A DNA stretch of 37,165 bases from a virus. Location: the UHGV virus genome UHGV-0093680, one strand, 5' to 3'. A program made the position numbers and the translations under genes. A model generated the notes under the pieces. That model was not told the DNA's origin. It saw nothing but the letters and a program-made list of their open reading frames with translations, and searched no databases. Positions 1 to 37,085 of this stretch are shown here, piece by piece; the first letter of the stretch is position 1; each line of letters starts with the position of its first letter.

Positions 1-87
1 TGGCGAGCGTTCCACTCCTGAAGTGTCAAGTACATCGCAAAGTCTCCGCAATTACTCGCAAGGGAACGAGTAGTGGTTGATTTTTCT

Positions 88-115
88 CCAACAAAAAAGG
101 AGCCGAAGCTCCTTT
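88..115 (-). terminator. Rho-independent terminator 3' of the antirepressor-like gene
   Basis: On the minus strand: hairpin AAAGGAGC-UUCG-GCUCCUUU followed by a U-rich run, directly after the CDS stop at 121-123. Confidence 0.6.
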
Positions 116-120
116 GATGA

Positions 121-744
121 TTAAAATTCGAATTGTCTCGCCCGAAGGCTTTTCAACATTGGTCTTGCCCGTTCGAAAACGGCGCTTGCCTGGTCAAGTC
201 GTGTCGCCTCCCTGAGCAGTACATCTCTGTTTTTCGTCACCGCATAGAAGGTTTCAAACGCAATGTCATACAGCTTACTCGCGTATGATGAGTTAAGTTC
301 CTTCATTATCGGGTACAGGCGTTTGCAGATGTCCTGTGCATTCTCCATCTGTACCTGCATGTAGCAGAGGAGGATGATTTCCTCGTCTGTGAATTGCTGC
401 GCTGGTTGCATGCTGCGAAGTTTCTTTTCGCACTCGATGAAGTATCGGCGTATCTGGCGGCCTTTTTCGTTGCGCTCGACCATCGCAGTTTCTTTGGCCG
501 TATCGAGGGTGAGGTGATAGTCTTTGCTACGGCGATCGCCTCCTCGACCTTTGATTTCCCGATTTGGGGAAACCAAAATATAGTCCTGATTTTCAACGAA
601 ACCATATTCAGCAATGCGTTCTGTAATCCACGATGCAAAGCGTTTACCTACCCCAAGAAAAGTATGTAAATCGCGAGCATTAACGAGAAGAGTGGTTTCG
701 TTGGCGATAGTGCCGTTGAATACGGGGATGAGTTGAATAGCCAT
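121..744 (-). CDS. AntA/AntB-family phage antirepressor-like protein
   Basis: ORF 121..780; N-terminal segment NARDLHTFLGVGKRFASWITERIAEYGFVENQDYIL matches my recollection of the AntA/AntB domain. Start placed at the in-frame ATG (MAIQLIPV) 9 nt after AGGAG. Confidence 0.7.
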   Translation of the reverse strand: MAIQLIPVFNGTIANETTLLVNARDLHTFLGVGKRFASWITERIAEYGFVENQDYILVSPNREIKGRGGDRRSKDYHLTLDTAKETAMVERNEKGRQIRRYFIECEKKLRSMQPAQQFTDEEIILLCYMQVQMENAQDICKRLYPIMKELNSSYASKLYDIAFETFYAVTKNRDVLLREATRLDQASAVFERARPMLKSLRARQFEF

Positions 745-1024
745 AATCATGACTCCTGACGTTTTAGTATTGACTGCCACCTTAGTGGGGTGGCGGGCTT
801 CAACTACCGCGTCAGACGGCGGAGCTTATTTCCCGAAAGGGTGTTCTATTAGGCTCTCTCGACCCGCCATAGATATGGCGATACCTGTAAACAGGCATAA
901 AAAAGCCGCAAAGCTATCGGGTGCGGTTGACCGCTGACGTTGTAGTGCGGTCAGTATGCGATAGCTCTGGCGGATTTGTCAAATCATGTAGCCTTTATCC
1001 TGCTGTAAGCCGCGCCATTCGGGA

Positions 1025-1046
1025 TTTTCCCCATATTTGGGGAAAA
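1025..1046. repeat. Perfect inverted repeat TTTTCCCC-ATATTT-GGGGAAAA in the antirepressor upstream region
   Basis: 8-bp arms with a 6-bp AT spacer, read directly; a shorter copy (TTTCCC-GATTTG-GGGAAA) lies at about 555-572 inside the antirepressor CDS. Confidence 0.5.
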
Positions 1047-1085
1047 CTATCTGCGAAGTATTCACCTTTGACGGCAAGTTGCAGG

Positions 1086-1571
1086 TTAGCCACGGTTAAC
1101 CTCCTGAGGCGGTTCTGGTAGCGGCATCCAATTGATTACATCGCATTCAGGGATGCTGATATCATCACCAAGCCACCCTTGACCTTCAGACCTGCATTGC
1201 ACGTAATACCCGTATTCTGTGTTCACTACGCACCACTGCGCGTCGTTCGGCATTCGCTCACTACAGCTTATCCAACCATCCGGAGTTACCGGCACTGGCT
1301 GGGCGGTGTAAAGCGGAACAACTCGCCCTCCCCATTGCTTAACACTACTCTCAGCGAACACTAAATGCTCAGTCCGATAATACCCAGGGGCATCAATATC
1401 TTTTCTTTCGCTATCCCACATGTAAACCACCGGCTCTGCTGTCAGCGATGCCAGAGCAATTCGTGCCAGTTCTTCCGCTTCTTCTGCTGGCAGTACAACG
1501 TTGCTACCAGGTCCGTATGTTTCGCGCCACTGCCTGATTGTCAGCAGTCGCTCTTTGGTAATAGTGGTCAT
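1086..1571 (-). CDS. DUF551-like phage protein
   Basis: ORF 1086..1652; C-terminal signature W-x-PLPEPP is typical of DUF551 proteins; start at MTTITKERLL preceded by AAAGGAGAG; start lies 1 nt from the upstream gene's stop. Confidence 0.65.
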   Translation of the reverse strand: MTTITKERLLTIRQWRETYGPGSNVVLPAEEAEELARIALASLTAEPVVYMWDSERKDIDAPGYYRTEHLVFAESSVKQWGGRVVPLYTAQPVPVTPDGWISCSERMPNDAQWCVVNTEYGYYVQCRSEGQGWLGDDISIPECDVINWMPLPEPPQEVNRG

Positions 1572-1572
1572 A

Positions 1573-2301
1573 TCACTCTCCTTTGATGCGAATGCCTGCG
1601 GCGCGTGGCACATTAACTTCCACGATGCGCACAGTTGGTTTGTACATCTCAATCGCTGTCAGCCAGTCAGCGCCAGTCATGCGCTTTTCTGCATCGCCAT
1701 TAGTCCACTTAACCGGTACACCAATAGCCTTCATCGCGATTTCTATTTCCCCGGCAATGGCGCTTTTTCCGCAACCAGTAAAACCAGATACAACGACAAG
1801 AACTTCGCCTTTGGCTGGTTTTATTTCCCGCGCTTCCAGTTCTGCTATGCGCTTCTCTGATGCTTCAAGTAACGCCTGCTTATCGCGTAGCGCTTCTTCC
1901 AGTTCAGCAACATGGCACTCACTATCAATAAGGTTGTTCTCTGCGGCTTCCAGCTCAACACGCAGCTTCCCTACCGTTAGCGCAATATCCTCGTTCTCTT
2001 GGTCGCGGCGTTTGATGTATTGCTGGTTTCTTTCCCGTTCATCCAACAATGCCAGCACGGTAACTGGATTGGCTGCGGCGATGAATTCAGCATTGGCCTG
2101 CTGTTCCATTTGGAAATCTTCATCGAAACCGCTTTCAGGATGCGCTCCTTCAATTCTGCAAATGGGAAGATATCCAACAACTTCACGATGAATTAGCGCA
2201 TCACCAGCATCAAATCTCTCCTCTCCATATTCTAGCGACCACACACCACACGTTGCTTTTTCTGCCTTAGCACGCAGTGCCTGGTAATTAATTTCGCTCA
2301 C
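1573..2301 (-). CDS. Ead/Ea22-like protein
   Basis: N-terminus MSEINYQALRAKAEKA and a central acidic coiled coil match my recollection of Ea22-like prophage proteins; GTG start 6 nt after AGGAGG. Confidence 0.7.
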   Translation of the reverse strand: MSEINYQALRAKAEKATCGVWSLEYGEERFDAGDALIHREVVGYLPICRIEGAHPESGFDEDFQMEQQANAEFIAAANPVTVLALLDERERNQQYIKRRDQENEDIALTVGKLRVELEAAENNLIDSECHVAELEEALRDKQALLEASEKRIAELEAREIKPAKGEVLVVVSGFTGCGKSAIAGEIEIAMKAIGVPVKWTNGDAEKRMTGADWLTAIEMYKPTVRIVEVNVPRAAGIRIKGE

Positions 2302-2542
2302 TGGCTGCCTCCTGCTTTTCTGCCTTCAACACCATGCGAGAACCATCATCCAGCTCCCACACTATCTCACCACCTTCAGCCATGACCAGTTGCCACACCA
2401 ATTGAGCAGCCTCATTGGTAACATCACGACCTGGATCATTGCCAACGCGCATACGTCCACCTTCAACATCGCGCATTTTTGCCAGCATGATAGTTTTTGA
2501 TAGCGGTGAAAAACCAAGCTGTAGTCGTGCTGAATTACTCAC
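2288..2542 (-). CDS. Hypothetical phage protein (84 aa)
   Basis: In-frame GTG start (VSNSARLQ) 6 nt after GGAGG within ORF 2288..2575; stop overlaps the Ea22-like start; GTGA overlap with the upstream gene. Confidence 0.5.
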   Translation of the reverse strand: MSNSARLQLGFSPLSKTIMLAKMRDVEGGRMRVGNDPGRDVTNEAAQLVWQLVMAEGGEIVWELDDGSRMVLKAEKQEAASERN

Positions 2543-3039
2543 TGGTTGCCTCCTTTGCGAAGCTGTTCCGCCCATTCTTCAAGGGATTTCTCCGCATATT
2601 CACCGGACAGGCCATCAATCGGGTACGGTTCATTAGCCAACTCTTCTTTCGCTGACAGAATCATGCGCGTAACGTCGAAAACTTCACGCAAAGACTTATT
2701 GATAAATCCGTGATTGAACGCAGCAGCAAGACGGCTGGCGGTATAGTTAATCCCCTCGTTGCGTGCTTCCGCACGAATTTCAGCCAGAAAAGCATCGGTG
2801 GCTGGGGTTTCCGTGAAGTTGTCCTCCCAACCGTAGTACTCCTGACGACAGAAGTTATTAAATTCCTTCTCCGACTGTTTAAGCGCCGCATTCTCCGCTG
2901 CCAGCGCCGCGCACTTGGCCTCCGCTTCAGCAAATTTACGCACCAGATATTCAGCGTTTGTTTCGTTAACCTTTAAATCACTTGGGATGCATTTACCTTT
3001 AAGAAATCCATCCATCTCAATTAGTGACATTTGTTTCAT
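2539..3039 (-). CDS. Hypothetical phage protein (166 aa)
   Basis: Long ORF in the same orientation and tightly packed in the early-left operon; no motif recognised. Confidence 0.55.
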
Positions 3040-3200
3040 TTCTTCCCACTCCGCAACATCGCATTCAGATATTTGTTTTGATTCACTGATGGAAAAGAAT
3101 TTCTCTTAAGCAATTCCTCTCTCGATGGCATTGGCTTTACGCGTTGGCGAATAATCATTTCTGCCGGAAGAATGCCGGGATTGTATGCAAGTCCTCTCAT
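3036..3200 (-). CDS. Hypothetical small protein (54 aa)
   Basis: ORF 3036..3233; start chosen at MRGLAYNPG, 6 nt after GAGGAA; ATGA overlap with the downstream gene. Confidence 0.4.
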
Positions 3201-3210
3201 GGTAAATTCC

Positions 3211-3507
3211 TCAGTCATTACTGATAGCGCCATAGCGTGAGCGGTAATTACGCAGGCGCGGGTCGATATATTCAGGGAATTTGTCTATTGTCGCTTTTCG
3301 CAACGGTCTCATTGCTGTTTCGTTTGTTCGGTCCTTCTCCTGTTTTAGCGCGAGTTGTATATCGCGTCGGTACATCCGTTCTGCTTTTGTTTCTGGTGTC
3401 AGAGCAAGAAACGCGTCGAAATTGTTTTTGATATTTTCCAGCACCTCCGCCTTGGAACTACCGGAGCAATTGCGCGGGTCATCCGCACCATACAGAGGCG
3501 CTGGCAT
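3211..3507 (-). CDS. Hypothetical phage protein (98 aa)
   Basis: ORF fitting operon packing; no motif recognised. Confidence 0.5.
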
Positions 3508-3530
3508 AATGGGAGCCTTATTTTCAATAA

Positions 3531-4118
3531 TCAGAAAGGAGGGTAATCGTTCTGGCTGTAACCATAATCATCTGCATGATTATGGCTTACGTTTTTAGAG
3601 CGATTGTATTTATCTTTGAGGCTGGCAACCATGTTGGCGATAGTTTCTGGTTGCTTGCCTTCCGCCTTTTCTTTAAGGGTTTGACCTGTTTGTGCAATAA
3701 ACGGGATGCGTATTTCCATCTGGTAGCTGTCTGCGCCAGTCTTTTTGTTTGTGGTTAATACTTTCTGGAGCACTAACCCGATTTTCTTTCCATGAAACTC
3801 AGGAGCAACAAATTTACTGGCGGAAACCATATGTTGCGTTAATTGTCCAATCCCGGCACACCCCATCATGGCGTGAACGACATTTGCGCCAAATTTGTTT
3901 TCCGTTCCGTCATTTTTCTGAACACAGACGCTAAGATATTGGATTTTACGTCCGTCGTCAGATTCGCCAGAAAACTCAATAAATTTGGCTCCTTTTTCTG
4001 ATTGCTTTAGTTCTGCTTCAGTAATGGTAATGATATGAGCACCAGTTTCGTTAATAAAACCACCTTGCCCTGCGGTCAGTGCTGCTTCTTCGTTATAAGT
4101 AAAAATCACGTTGCTCAT
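3531..4118 (-). CDS. Putative ssDNA-binding protein (SSB-like partner of the Sak4-type ATPase)
   Basis: ATGA overlap with the upstream ATPase gene; aromatic/acidic C-terminal tail (DDYGYSQNDYPPF) resembles an SSB-type tail; the DUF669/DUF2815 assignment is tentative. Confidence 0.5.
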   Translation of the reverse strand: MSNVIFTYNEEAALTAGQGGFINETGAHIITITEAELKQSEKGAKFIEFSGESDDGRKIQYLSVCVQKNDGTENKFGANVVHAMMGCAGIGQLTQHMVSASKFVAPEFHGKKIGLVLQKVLTTNKKTGADSYQMEIRIPFIAQTGQTLKEKAEGKQPETIANMVASLKDKYNRSKNVSHNHADDYGYSQNDYPPF

Positions 4119-4795
4119 GCGGCGTTTTCCTTAATTTGATGAACATTATTGATGCCGTAGTAATCACAAACAGTGGCATCGACGAAAGAGAGATCGTTAT
4201 CAATCTCATTAGAATCAAACATTCCCATTGGGGATTTTACAGTGTCTGCACCGTTGTTTTTCGTGGTGAAAAAGAACTGGTCATCGCGGGTAAGGGTGCG
4301 AAGAACTATAGTAAACATGCCTTCGACAGTGATTTTCTCGTCCAGCATTTTGCCGATAGTCTTCATTTTCACACGCCCCATAGGGGTTTCTTCGGTGTGT
4401 GCAAGAAAATAGACTCTCAGGTCATCAGGTGCATCCTGTGCAGCCTTAATCACCTCCCATGCGTGGCGGCCTATCTCAGTGAATTTATCAAACGATTTTT
4501 CTTCTGAGCGGCGCATAAACTCATTGCTCATCACATACTGGAAGTCATCAACAATAACGATTCTTTTCCCGTATTCGTGAGCACGCTTAATTACGGCAAC
4601 TATTACGTCCCATTTGTCAGTGGTAACTACGGTTCCTTTTTTTGCTCTGGCATCCCATGCCAGCCAGTCTTTTGATTTAAATGGAAGCGGCTTGCCTATT
4701 GGTTTTATAAGTATTGCTTCCTCTGGATTGATATTTCTCATGCTGGTTGATTTTCCGGTGCCAGATTCACCGAGTATTAATGTCGCAGTTCCCAT
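4115..4795 (-). CDS. Sak4-like RecA-fold ATPase (phage recombination protein)
   Basis: N-terminal Walker A LILGESGTGKST and Walker B-like IVIVDDFQ; about 226 aa, a RecA core only; sits where lambdoid recombination genes lie, between kil and the accessory genes. Confidence 0.7.
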   Translation of the reverse strand: MGTATLILGESGTGKSTSMRNINPEEAILIKPIGKPLPFKSKDWLAWDARAKKGTVVTTDKWDVIVAVIKRAHEYGKRIVIVDDFQYVMSNEFMRRSEEKSFDKFTEIGRHAWEVIKAAQDAPDDLRVYFLAHTEETPMGRVKMKTIGKMLDEKITVEGMFTIVLRTLTRDDQFFFTTKNNGADTVKSPMGMFDSNEIDNDLSFVDATVCDYYGINNVHQIKENAA

Positions 4796-5450: not shown

Positions 5451-5693
5451 TTAATCAGCAATAAAATCTTCTGGTAATTTATCAACCACTTGATGGCTTA
5501 TTATCAGCCATTTGCCATCCTTCGTTTCGTATGCATATTTTTGGTCTTTTATCATCATGTGTTCAGCTACTGCCTTAACTGCCTGTTCGGTTACATCTTC
5601 TTTCTTTCCCACCCACATTCCTTTTTCAGTGTTTAATGTTCCTTGAAAAATACGACCACTTAATGGGCTTGCGCCCATAGTTTTTACTCTCAT
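5451..5693 (-). CDS. Hypothetical protein (80 aa) at the ral/ea10 position
   Basis: ORF with GAGGG 7 nt upstream of ATG; immediately downstream of the N-like gene. Confidence 0.5.
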   Translation of the reverse strand: MRVKTMGASPLSGRIFQGTLNTEKGMWVGKKEDVTEQAVKAVAEHMMIKDQKYAYETKDGKWLIISHQVVDKLPEDFIAD

Positions 5694-15860: not shown

Positions 15861-15935
15861 GGGGCAGTCGTATAAAGGTCATTACGGAAGGCTGTTAACC
15901 TTCTTATCGTGGTTCGAGTCCACGCTGTCCCGCCA
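15861..15935 (+). tRNA. tRNA-like gene, anticodon GUU (Asn) by manual folding
   Basis: Acceptor stem GGGGCAG/CTGTCCC (one G-U pair), anticodon stem GAAGG/CCTTC with loop CTGTTAA, T-arm CGTGG-TTCGAGT-CCACG, discriminator G, encoded CCA; D-stem only 3 bp. Confidence 0.5.
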
Positions 15936-15940
15936 AATAT

Positions 15941-16016
15941 GCTGGTTTAGCTCCAATGGTAGAGCAGTCGCCTTGTAAGCGAATGGGTGGCGGTTCAAGT
16001 CCGTCAACCAGCACCA
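15941..16016 (+). tRNA. tRNA-like gene, anticodon UGU (Thr) by manual folding
   Basis: Acceptor stem GCTGGTT/AACCAGC, D-arm GCTC-CAATGGTA-GAGC, anticodon loop CTTGTAA, T-arm GGCGG-TTCAAGT-CCGTC, encoded CCA; one mismatch in the anticodon stem. Confidence 0.55.
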
Positions 16017-36376: not shown

Positions 36377-36576
36377 GTAAAGAATGTTGTTTCTGCGGCA
36401 TTAGCGAATCAGACGCTGATCAAACATACATTTACTCTAAAGAAACAGGTCGGATGCTGTGTAGTGACTGCGTGTTGGACATCATAAGATACAAGCATCT
36501 TGGATGTTCTGCCAGCATTAGCAATATAGGTGAAGTATATGAAGGGAAAGATATAACTGATAGATCAGAAAGTTGA
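36373..36576 (+). CDS. Small Cys-rich (zinc-ribbon-like) protein (67 aa)
   Basis: CFCG…CSDC pattern; ATGA overlap with the arc-like stop. Confidence 0.45.
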
Positions 36577-36638
36577 AGCCCCAACTGCGGGAACAGTCAG
36601 GGCTTCGGTTGTCAGTAAATCCGTGGAGAAAAACCAAC

Positions 36639-37085
36639 ATGAATAGTATAGCAATTTTAGAAGCAGTGAACACCTCTTACGTACCATTCAACGGTCAGCA
36701 AATTATCACCGCCATGGCTGCCGGAGTTGCATATGTTGCGATGAAGCCAATCGTTGAAAACCTCGGAATGAGCTGGGGTACTCAGCAACAAAAACTTATG
36801 AAACAACTAGATAAGTTCAACTGTATTCATATGAATATGGTTGCTGCTGATGGAAAGCTTCGTAAGCTACTCTGCCTTCCTTTGAAGAAGTTAAATGGAT
36901 GGCTGTTCAGCATCAACCCCGAGAAAGTTCGTGCTGACATCCGCGATAAACTGATTCAGTACCAGGAAGAATGCTTTACTGTGCTGCATGACTACTGGAC
37001 AAAGGGAAAGGCAGAAAATGCACGTAAGAAAACATCTGTTGATGACAGGACTCCGCTTCGTGATGCTGTAAATATGCTGGTCTGA
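36639..37085 (+). CDS. Short antirepressor-like protein (N-terminal domain only)
   Basis: In-frame ATG within ORF 36573..37085 after GGAGA; about 148 aa; the assignment rests mainly on its position after arc, with only a weak recollection of P22 Ant N-terminal similarity. Confidence 0.5.

Follow-up and report, generated by a model that had tools for sequence, protein, structure and literature searches.

Abc2, portable gene cassettes and a putatively RNA-gated antirepressor in a P22-like prophage's early-left region

A new combination of known cassettes upstream of xis

The virus genome UHGV-0093680 comprises 37,165 nucleotides (nt), and this whole stretch, to which all coordinates refer, is called the window below. 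Between positions 121 and 3507 it carries seven consecutive minus-strand genes, which encode, in the direction of transcription, Abc2, a DUF2737 protein, an EaE-like protein, a DUF7446 protein, an Ea22-like protein, a DUF551 protein and AntA; all seven are present where an earlier reading of the bare sequence (the original prediction) had placed them. In this P22-like lambdoid prophage, the segment makes up the promoter-distal part of the early-left (pL-type) operon. It sits between the recombination module and xis, and the left end of the window begins inside the latter gene, which is of the lambda type (35-1, minus strand; start MYLTLQEWNAR..). The best explanation of the region, to which we assign a probability of roughly 0.8, is that it combines abc2 with five coupled cassette genes and an autonomous antirepressor cassette that would be gated by RNA. 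Known cassettes make up the gene cluster in a combination that is new but unremarkable; the interest lies in the RNA switch. For the cluster itself little changes: its annotation as a P22-type abc2-ea region is due, with a known mechanism for Abc2 only. What is added is twofold, namely that the junctions with GTG starts are portable boundary sequences, and that antA appears to be a c4-type RNA-gated cassette built on the sRNA-Xcc1 scaffold.

The window also carries a cIII thermoregulator and a P22-type sar RNA, and its nearest relatives by morphogenesis genes are the P22-like coliphages phiv205-1 and CUS-3. As the counterpart of the P22 abc2-ea region, positions 121-3507 keep the order abc2-orf56-eaE-eaD-eaA upstream of xis (BLASTP E-values of 2e-6 to 1e-41), and in both phages a tightly coupled minus-strand train ends at xis. 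Unlike P22, the region lacks abc1, orf45, eaF, eaI, eaG and eaC, and it holds the DUF7446 and AntA cassettes, which have no P22 counterpart at that place; the recombinase of the window is Sak4/SSB, whereas that of P22 is Erf, and the lambda-type xis is a further difference. The exo-xis region of lambda and Stx phages occupies the same position, from the recombination genes to xis, and likewise includes a coiled-coil protein of the Ead/Ea22 family, whilst Stx phage P13374 has in common with the window the arrangement of a DUF551 gene, a gap and an antB gene. Identity with the lambda-type exo-xis block (orf60a, orf63, orf61, orf73, ea22 and ea8.5) was considered and rejected, given that an Ea22-family gene is the only member of the conserved block in the window; orf60a, orf63, orf61 and orf73 are not among the open reading frames (ORFs) of the region, which fall into other Pfam and PHROG families. 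Pieces of the region are present in 3,651 of 5,426 complete E. coli genomes, and at least 80% of bases 1-3600 in one place was found in no phage record and in no complete E. coli genome, which is the usual signature of mosaicism.

The antA cassette and its structured RNA

The antA gene (121-744, minus strand) encodes a protein of 207 amino acids with an AntA/AntB N-terminal domain (PF08346; E = 3.8e-27, 95.1 bits against a cut-off of 27) and a P22_AR_C domain (PF10548; E = 2e-9, 37.9 bits), and it belongs to phrog_377. A homologue in a PGAP annotation is named 'phage antirepressor Ant'. The start codon is ATG 744, behind AGGAG, as in the PGAP homologue; GTG 780 was considered as an alternative start and rejected on the same ground. 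The original prediction had counted AntA among the coupled genes, but the gene stands apart from them. The gap of 341 nt between the DUF551 stop codon and antA holds a promoter-like site, a leader, a terminator-like hairpin and an 85-nt structured RNA, and a scan of the sequence placed an intrinsic terminator after antA, ahead of xis (115-96, minus strand). That AntA would constitute a separate, RNA-controlled cassette was missed in the earlier reading, as was the nature of the coupled GTG starts, which are conserved mosaic joints (see below).

In its proposed order the cassette, all on the minus strand, would run from the promoter through a leader with box1, the terminator-like hairpin, the 85-nt RNA and a box2 on the Shine-Dalgarno (SD) sequence to antA and the terminator. 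The promoter candidate is sigma-70-like (TTGACA-18-CATACT, 982-953; 10 of 12 matches in a consensus scan). It is followed by a leader hairpin (952-929), in which box1 (CGTCAG, 939-934) is a sense copy of the target box, and then, between leader and RNA, by the terminator-like hairpin with a U6 tract (927-899), which was read from the sequence and is kept in all related loci. A small hairpin (898-881), also read from the sequence, precedes the structured RNA (868-784), the antisense loop of which, CUGACG, lies at 815-810. Between the RNA and the ribosome-binding site (RBS) is hairpin 3 (CCACC..GGUGG, 793-777), whose stem sequence varies by class while its pairing is kept (helix 6). Box2 (CGTCAG, 761-756), recognised by its complementarity to the loop, overlaps the SD sequence of antA (AGGAG, 757-753), the two together spanning 761-753. 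Despite differing sequences, all classes of related loci have the promoter-like pair and both the leader and the terminator-like hairpins at the same positions. On reading the sequence, no LexA box was seen upstream of antA.

The structured RNA matched the Rfam family sRNA-Xcc1 (RF02221) with 49.6 bits (E = 5e-8). It aligned over its full length with positions 1-87 of the family model, with the closing stem and two hairpins present and with compensatory pairs in the closing stem and hairpin 1, so that both the consensus structure and the sequence core of sRNA-Xcc1 match the window RNA. At the same place the C4 family (RF01695) gave only a weak match, of 15.5 bits against a cut-off of 45. We then considered the RNA in its relatives: 80 phage loci with AntA homologues gave 30 distinct upstream regions, and 13 representative loci were scanned with Rfam. 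In 12 of the 13, sRNA-Xcc1 scored 53-74.5 bits, a 96%-identical homologue reaching 53.0 bits and eleven other ant-linked RNAs 61.8-74.5 bits. The thirteenth locus (L194) has a true C4 RNA (61 bits) and an a1b1 motif in the same slot upstream of a homologous ant gene.

Our proposal, that the RNA gates the adjacent downstream gene, differs from the published reading of sRNA-Xcc1. In the portion of the literature available to us (PMC2996969; Chen et al. 2011 as cited by others), sRNA-Xcc1 is an integron-encoded, virulence-associated, trans-acting small RNA (sRNA) of Xanthomonas, and other reports merely place it upstream of symE or of an ORF6N gene.

Covariation of loop and boxes, and the proposed control of antA

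The loop CUGACG (815-810) is complementary to CGUCAG both at 761-756, on the SD sequence, and at 939-934, in the leader hairpin. In a complementarity scan that was confined to the RNA body, and thereby excluded pairings between flanks, the related loci had 13 different loop sequences, and loop and boxes co-varied across at least 13 specificity classes. Exactly one antisense copy (-71 to -93 from the ATG) and two sense copies (-15 to -18 and -188 to -209) were present in 12 of 13 classes; in the thirteenth (L169) the second sense copy lies further upstream, at -289, and there is no exact antisense copy. The loop of one class (L131) is CUUUGAAG. Duplex energies for box2 averaged -16.7 kcal/mol in cognate and -9.7 kcal/mol in non-cognate combinations, and those for box1 -25.6 versus -18.7 kcal/mol; the cognate energies were equalled in 0 of 100,000 permutations. 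For the window loop, the cognate box2 duplex (-14.3 kcal/mol) was the best of 12 targets tested. Within one well-aligned subfamily, seven of eight loop-box2 pairs had changed on both sides, whereas 27 scaffold pairs were nearly invariant; the observed values were reached in 0 of 500 shuffles, and slid controls were 35-51% paired. This formal pair count was limited to the one subfamily because the MAFFT alignment across RNA subfamilies is not structure-aware.

The covariation bears directly on the idea that the RNA is a trans-acting sRNA with targets among the genes of the host (or of a plant host), a role proposed for sRNA-Xcc1 in Xanthomonas and Xylella, with its adjacency to antA being incidental. 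Such a role would agree with the virulence-associated, trans-acting sRNA of the literature cited above, and Rfam keeps sRNA-Xcc1 outside the C4 clan. However, a host target would stay the same from phage to phage, whereas the variable loop changes together with two boxes of its own locus, at fixed distances from the start codon, in at least 13 classes and across the Proteobacteria. Moreover, the genes downstream are consistently of the antirepressor type (Bro-N, Rha, ORF6N, P22_AR or AntA) or encode SymE. We consider a host-directed role very unlikely.

Two kinds of related locus in IMG/VR have additional features. In L172:2140-3020 and L169:700-1250, antirepressor cassettes stand in tandem, each with its own promoter, box1, RNA and box2 and with differing specificity; the second gene of the L172 tandem encodes a Bro-N + P22_AR_C protein. 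In L128, L129, L130 and L198 (approximately -150 to -1 from the ant start), the 5' flank of the RNA (UUUAUGUCC, UCAGAUA) also has complementarity with both the SD-ATG region and the 3' flank, and this suggests an extra fold in cis that would hide the RBS in the unprocessed transcript.

The arrangement in the window resembles the c4-ant system of phages P1 and P7, in which loop differences make the two phages heteroimmune. Citron and Schuster reportedly found in 1990 that the P1/P7 c4 RNA, encoded upstream of ant, pairs via its loops with a target at the RBS and with a second copy further upstream. From its sequence, antA likewise seems to be silenced by a small antisense RNA of P1 c4 type: the loop would pair with box2, mask the ribosome-binding site of antA and block translation, whilst pairing with box1 would probably tune read-through of the leader terminator at 927-899, a possible attenuator. 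The window shares with the immI region of P1 and P7 (RF01695, RF03163) a structured RNA upstream of an antirepressor gene and on the same strand (here 868-784 versus 744-121), a loop that complements a box at the next gene's RBS and here co-varies with it, a further target copy upstream of the RNA (box1, the equivalent of a1b1, which 12 of 13 classes have at -188 to -209) and a specificity that differs between phages. It differs in its RNA scaffold, given the Rfam scores above (15.5 bits for C4 and 49.6 for sRNA-Xcc1), in an Ant protein of the AntA + P22_AR_C type and in its host element, a lambdoid/P22-like prophage. A 2025 review, in which the P1/P7 c4-ant system is summarised, lists c4 for P1 and P7 only (PMC12197685).

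Several points weigh against this interpretation. The window RNA falls 3.4 bits under the Rfam gathering cut-off of 53, and the exact complementarity between its loop and boxes amounts to just 6 nt plus one G-U pair, with most other classes having longer matches. In comparison with P1 and P7, there is one co-varying loop and not the pair a' and b', and there is no icd-like ORF, the box lying directly on the SD sequence of ant. The promoter of antA is a consensus match only, and the terminator-like hairpin downstream of it (927-899) could mean that the RNA and antA are transcribed mainly via antiterminated read-through from pL. Finally, AntA is an antirepressor only by family annotation, and would presumably inactivate a prophage repressor.

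A different possibility is that the pairing of loop and boxes acts in cis only, as a leader switch or attenuator that hides the RBS, with no diffusible RNA to confer immunity in trans. The RNA, the boxes and antA do lie on one strand behind one promoter, and the L128-type loci, with an RNA 5' flank complementary to the SD-ATG region, are suggestive of sequestration in cis. On the other hand, a long closing stem and a ..CCACCC tail give the scaffold the topology of P1 c4, an RNA that is excised and works in trans. Orthogonal specificities in tandem modules, moreover, make most sense if the RNAs diffuse. We regard an exclusively cis-acting element as unlikely, and note that cis and trans action are compatible with each other. 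Under the c4-type control proposed here, the antA RNA would presumably also be processed from its transcript.

In a scan of one genome per species, the RNA core was found in Xanthomonas, Bartonella, Neisseria, Haemophilus, Azospirillum, Desulfovibrio and others, and the core of sRNA-Xcc1 is nearly identical across several bacterial phyla. At 87 sites across the Proteobacteria with a recognisable downstream ORF, which between them have 26 distinct boxes, a complement of at least 7 nt between loop and initiation region was present in 31% of cognate pairs, compared to 2.5% of cross-pairings. The downstream genes sampled encode Bro-N, Rha, ORF6N and P22_AR proteins, as well as the SymE toxin in Xanthomonas arboricola. 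In the latter cassette copy (L360), box1, loop and box2 are all present (CUUCGAG/CUCGAAG), and this suggests that the RNA is an antitoxin-like regulator of symE in integron cassettes. We lean somewhat towards the broader view that sRNA-Xcc1 is a second widespread scaffold of c4-type gatekeeper RNAs which silence an adjacent antirepressor or SymE gene, that its orthogonal loop/box classes are immunity specificities, and that this prophage has two RNA-gated antirepressors.

If that is true, a single cell or a single phage could accommodate several switches, thanks to the orthogonal classes. Provided that the RNA works as proposed, many lambdoid, P22-like and Stx prophages would hold a P1-like, RNA-specified second layer of immunity, which would control the antirepressor and, through it, prophage induction. 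The same logic would supply a mechanism for sRNA-Xcc1 beside symE in Xanthomonas integron cassettes, where a 2025 preprint describes the symE arrangement only as 'suggesting a divergent regulatory mechanism' (10.1101/2025.06.18.660453). A link between sRNA-Xcc1 and c4-type control was not found in the literature searched, and an earlier mention outside the searchable literature is possible.

The opposite end of the window has an antirepressor locus of its own. There, the P22-type sar RNA (95.6 bits) overlaps the start of a 170-amino acid ORF with a P22_AR_N domain only (36571-37085); the P22_AR_C domain is instead on the left-end AntA protein. The phage may thus carry two different RNA-controlled antirepressor modules, sar/ant and the antA cassette. 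In the sar-ant pair of P22 immI, as proposed for antA, an antisense RNA controls an antirepressor, and the window holds such a pair at 36571-37085; however, sar comes from the opposite strand across the start of ant, whereas the antA RNA is upstream, on the same strand, and would pair via a short loop.

Junctions and products of the coupled cassette genes, and Abc2

The tight packing that the original prediction described holds at four of the six junctions, namely DUF2737/EaE-like (ATGA overlap), EaE-like/DUF7446 (GTGA overlap), DUF7446/Ea22-like (14-nt overlap) and Ea22-like/DUF551 (1-nt gap), but neither at Abc2/DUF2737, with a gap of 10 nt, nor ahead of AntA. Its two GTG starts were confirmed at 2542 and 2301, each behind AGGAGG with a 6-nt spacer. 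Both GTG junctions are copies of one 17-mer, AGGAGGCA[A/G]CCAGTGAG, which occurs twice in the window against 0.01 expected. The first copy (AGGAGGCAACCAGTGAG; 2538-2554, minus strand) comprises the SD sequence, the stop codon that ends the EaE-like gene and the GTG at which DUF7446 starts, and the second (AGGAGGCAGCCAGTGAG; 2297-2313, minus strand) lies within the 3' end of the DUF7446 gene and supplies the Ea22-like gene with its SD sequence and GTG start. The two copies flank the DUF7446 gene, and in E. coli M15, which is without DUF7446 there, a single 17-mer joins the EaE-like gene straight to the Ea22-like gene; DUF7446 therefore behaves as a cassette between copies of the joint.

The 17-mer is found in at least 120 IMG/VR contigs, where at least 130 sites join at least 51 upstream C-termini to at least 57 downstream N-termini in at least 100 distinct pairs. 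A second portable junction (AAAGGAGAGTGATATGAC; 1567-1584, minus strand) comprises an SD sequence, the stop codon of the Ea22-like gene and the ATG of the DUF551 gene. This Ea22/DUF551 junction (AARGGAGAGTGATATGAC) is also present in at least 120 IMG/VR contigs, and 100 non-redundant sites among the matches listed have 62 upstream domains and 39 downstream N-termini in 81 pairs. Short conserved boundary sequences as foci of homologous exchange are part of the published model of lambdoid mosaicism (PMC3233612, citing Susskind & Botstein 1978, and Clark et al. 2001 on HK620), and the 17-mer of the GTG junctions is a good example of this known phenomenon. On our reading, the five cassette genes would be translated by coupling via short boundary sequences that each unite an SD sequence, an upstream stop and a downstream start, and these same sequences would be the joints at which phages swap cassettes. 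Exchange of this kind would explain both the two GTG/AGGAGG starts and a gene combination that was found nowhere else.

It could be argued against such exchange that conservation of the boundaries stems from selection on translation initiation alone, and that the 17-mer and the other junctions are merely good signals for translational coupling. The 17-mer does have everything needed for re-initiation, i.e., AGGAGG, a 6-nt spacer, GTG and an overlapping TGA. However, more than 100 contexts with unrelated flanks have exactly the same spacer bases and the same synonymous choices in the upstream K-G-G-N-Q codons, the presence or absence of the DUF7446 cassette falls exactly between two copies of the 17-mer, and a second, unrelated junction (Ea22/DUF551) acts alike. 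Coupling signals with no part in recombination are, in our view, quite improbable.

A third GTG start behind AGGAGG-N6 opens a 32-codon ORF (995-1093, minus strand), with 8 nt of overlap at the DUF551 stop. Its match to a 94-amino acid gene that follows eaA in BTP1 and other phages is confined to the first 13 codons (MANLQLAVKGEYF), and the ORF is probably a truncated stub left behind when the antA cassette was inserted.

Among the products of the coupled genes, the DUF2737 protein (3036-3200, minus strand; 54 amino acids; PF10930, E = 3.4e-32, positions 1-53 of 53) is a homologue of P22 Orf56, with 77% identity and the same slot after abc2 in P22. The EaE-like protein (2539-3039, minus strand; 166 amino acids; phrog_614, without a Pfam family) is 45% identical to P22 EaE (E = 2e-40). 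It is laid out as an N-terminal module, a short coiled coil, a conserved linker peptide, a C-terminal core and a ..QLRKGGNQ tail; in its homologues the N-terminal module is conserved, the middle is variable, and the C-terminal core is bracketed by the linker peptide and ..QLRKGGNQ. The modules also occur apart from each other in other proteins, and the relatives form more than 7,974 clusters at 90% identity and 787 at 50%. The DUF7446 cassette gene (2288-2542, minus strand; 84 amino acids, GTG start; PF24233, E = 6.4e-19) belongs to a family with 382 clusters in enterobacterial prophages. A second DUF7446 paralogue of 80 amino acids (5451-5693, minus strand; Pfam E = 3.2e-29), 30% identical to the copy at 2288-2542, sits in the interval from cIII/kil to N, which in P22 and lambda holds ral, ea10 and gene 17. 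The DUF551/EaA-like protein (1086-1571, minus strand; 161 amino acids; PF04448, E = 7.1e-12) matches P22 EaA at its N- and C-terminal parts.

The Ead/Ea22-like protein (1573-2301, minus strand; 242 amino acids, GTG start; PF13935, E = 1.5e-32, 113.5 bits) has the layout of the Ead/Ea22 family, with an N-terminal domain, a long coiled coil (residues ~79-158) and an 80-amino acid C-terminal domain, and is 50% identical to P22 EaD over the coiled coil. Its C-terminal domain (residues ~160-242; 1573-1830, minus strand) bears a Walker-A-like GFTGCGKS motif, is 97-100% conserved in 465 clusters and is found fused to N-terminal modules of the Ea22, EaE and EaA types. It is unrelated to the C-terminal domain of lambda Ea22, for which a structure has been solved, and has no match in the PDB with either a single sequence or a profile. 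NCBIfam searches with the seven proteins gave only weak P-loop matches (E ~0.006) around GFTGCGKS, and assignment of the domain as a P-loop NTPase was not supported by matches at this level combined with low AlphaFold2 confidence. The domain yielded no covariation signal because it has just ~80 amino acids and is nearly invariant.

The AlphaFold2 model of the Ea22-like protein had a mean predicted local distance difference test score (pLDDT) of 68.5, with values above 90 for the helix 79-158 and below 50 for the C-terminal domain, and that of the EaE-like protein scored 56.9. Models of this low confidence for the EaE-like protein and the Ea22-like C-terminal domain support no specific function, a further point on the debit side of our reading of the region, and their quality was insufficient for fold searches. 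With the Ea22-like, EaE-like, DUF551 and DUF7446 proteins as queries, neither sequence nor profile searches of the PDB gave anything significant, and nothing concerning function was found in the literature on the DUF families or on the names EaA, EaD and EaE. Paralogy between the EaE-like and Ea22-like proteins of the window was rejected, as the two have no pairwise similarity and are linked only via modules shuffled in other phages. Judged by their sequences, the EaE-, Ea22- and EaA-like proteins are one combinatorial family, in which an N-terminal module and a coiled coil are joined to an interchangeable C-terminal domain. Lambda Ea22 is tetrameric and pro-lysogenic (PMC7093339, PMC10834534), and by analogy the Ea proteins are likely to be oligomeric modulators of the lysis-lysogeny decision or of phage development, with swappable effector or target-binding domains.

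The 98-amino acid product of the first gene (3211-3507, minus strand) is identified by sequence as Abc2, anti-RecBCD protein 2, the RecBCD hijacker of solved structure. It matched PF11043 with E = 1.5e-35 (121.7 bits, cut-off 25; residues 1-98 on profile positions 1-97 of 97), belongs to phrog_656, matched the RecBCD-Abc2-PpiB complex (PDB 8B1T, E = 3.7e-32; also 8B1U) and is 61% identical to P22 Abc2. The PpiB substrate Pro68 is kept (MRPLR, with R-P at 67-68). The mechanism of Abc2 has been described (PMC9836394), and in this phage Abc2 would redirect RecBCD toward the phage's own Sak4/SSB recombination. The gene closes a Sak4-SSB-Abc2 module of the HK620 type, preceded by a Sak4-like gene (4115-4795; phrog_2872) and an SSB-2-like gene for a non-canonical SSB (3531-4118; phrog_743). 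This arrangement has been described for HK620 (PMC5928155; PMC12315714), where the hkaM-sak4-ssb-abc2 module has Sak4-like, SSB-2-like and Abc2 genes in the same order with overlapping stop and start codons; HK620 Abc2, however, is 94% identical to P22 Abc2 (PMC5928155), whereas the window protein is just 61% identical. Chi sites (GCTGGTGG) are not enriched in the 37-kb window, with 1 found and 0.98 expected, and a single site fits a phage with its own Rec module and Abc2 that does not depend on Chi-activated RecBCD.

The original prediction had seen the cluster as part of a lambdoid region for host takeover and counter-defence, with most of its proteins lacking an assignable function. The placement is right, and one takeover factor is present in Abc2, which was already characterised and is not an unknown; counter-defence was not borne out for the others. 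The lack of function holds in a biochemical sense for the DUF2737, EaE-like, DUF7446 and DUF551 proteins, all of which belong to large named families that enterobacterial prophages commonly carry, and pro-lysogenic phenotypes have been published for the Ea22 family (PMC7093339). It could still be that the cluster is an island of uncharacterised takeover or counter-defence factors, and that several of the DUF2737, EaE-like, DUF7446, Ea22-like and DUF551 proteins inhibit defence systems. This is the location where lambdoid phages keep non-essential early genes, Abc2 is directed at RecBCD, the shuffled, hypervariable C-terminal domains of the Ea-type proteins are as expected in an arms race, and the second DUF7446 paralogue occupies the ral/ea10 place of other phages. 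Against this, PDB sequence searches, NCBIfam and PADLOC, the last of which had no matches among the seven proteins, gave no homology to a characterised anti-defence protein in searches that included no anti-defence library, the published phenotypes of Ea22 concern the lysogeny decision and not defence (PMC7093339, PMC10834534), and the EaE-like and Ea22-like models are too poor for fold comparison. We regard such an island as rather doubtful, and nothing in these sequence comparisons supports an anti-defence role beyond Abc2.

Elsewhere in the window, genes for tRNA-Asn(GTT) and tRNA-Thr(TGT) lie adjacent to each other at 15861-16016 (plus strand), in the late region of the prophage.

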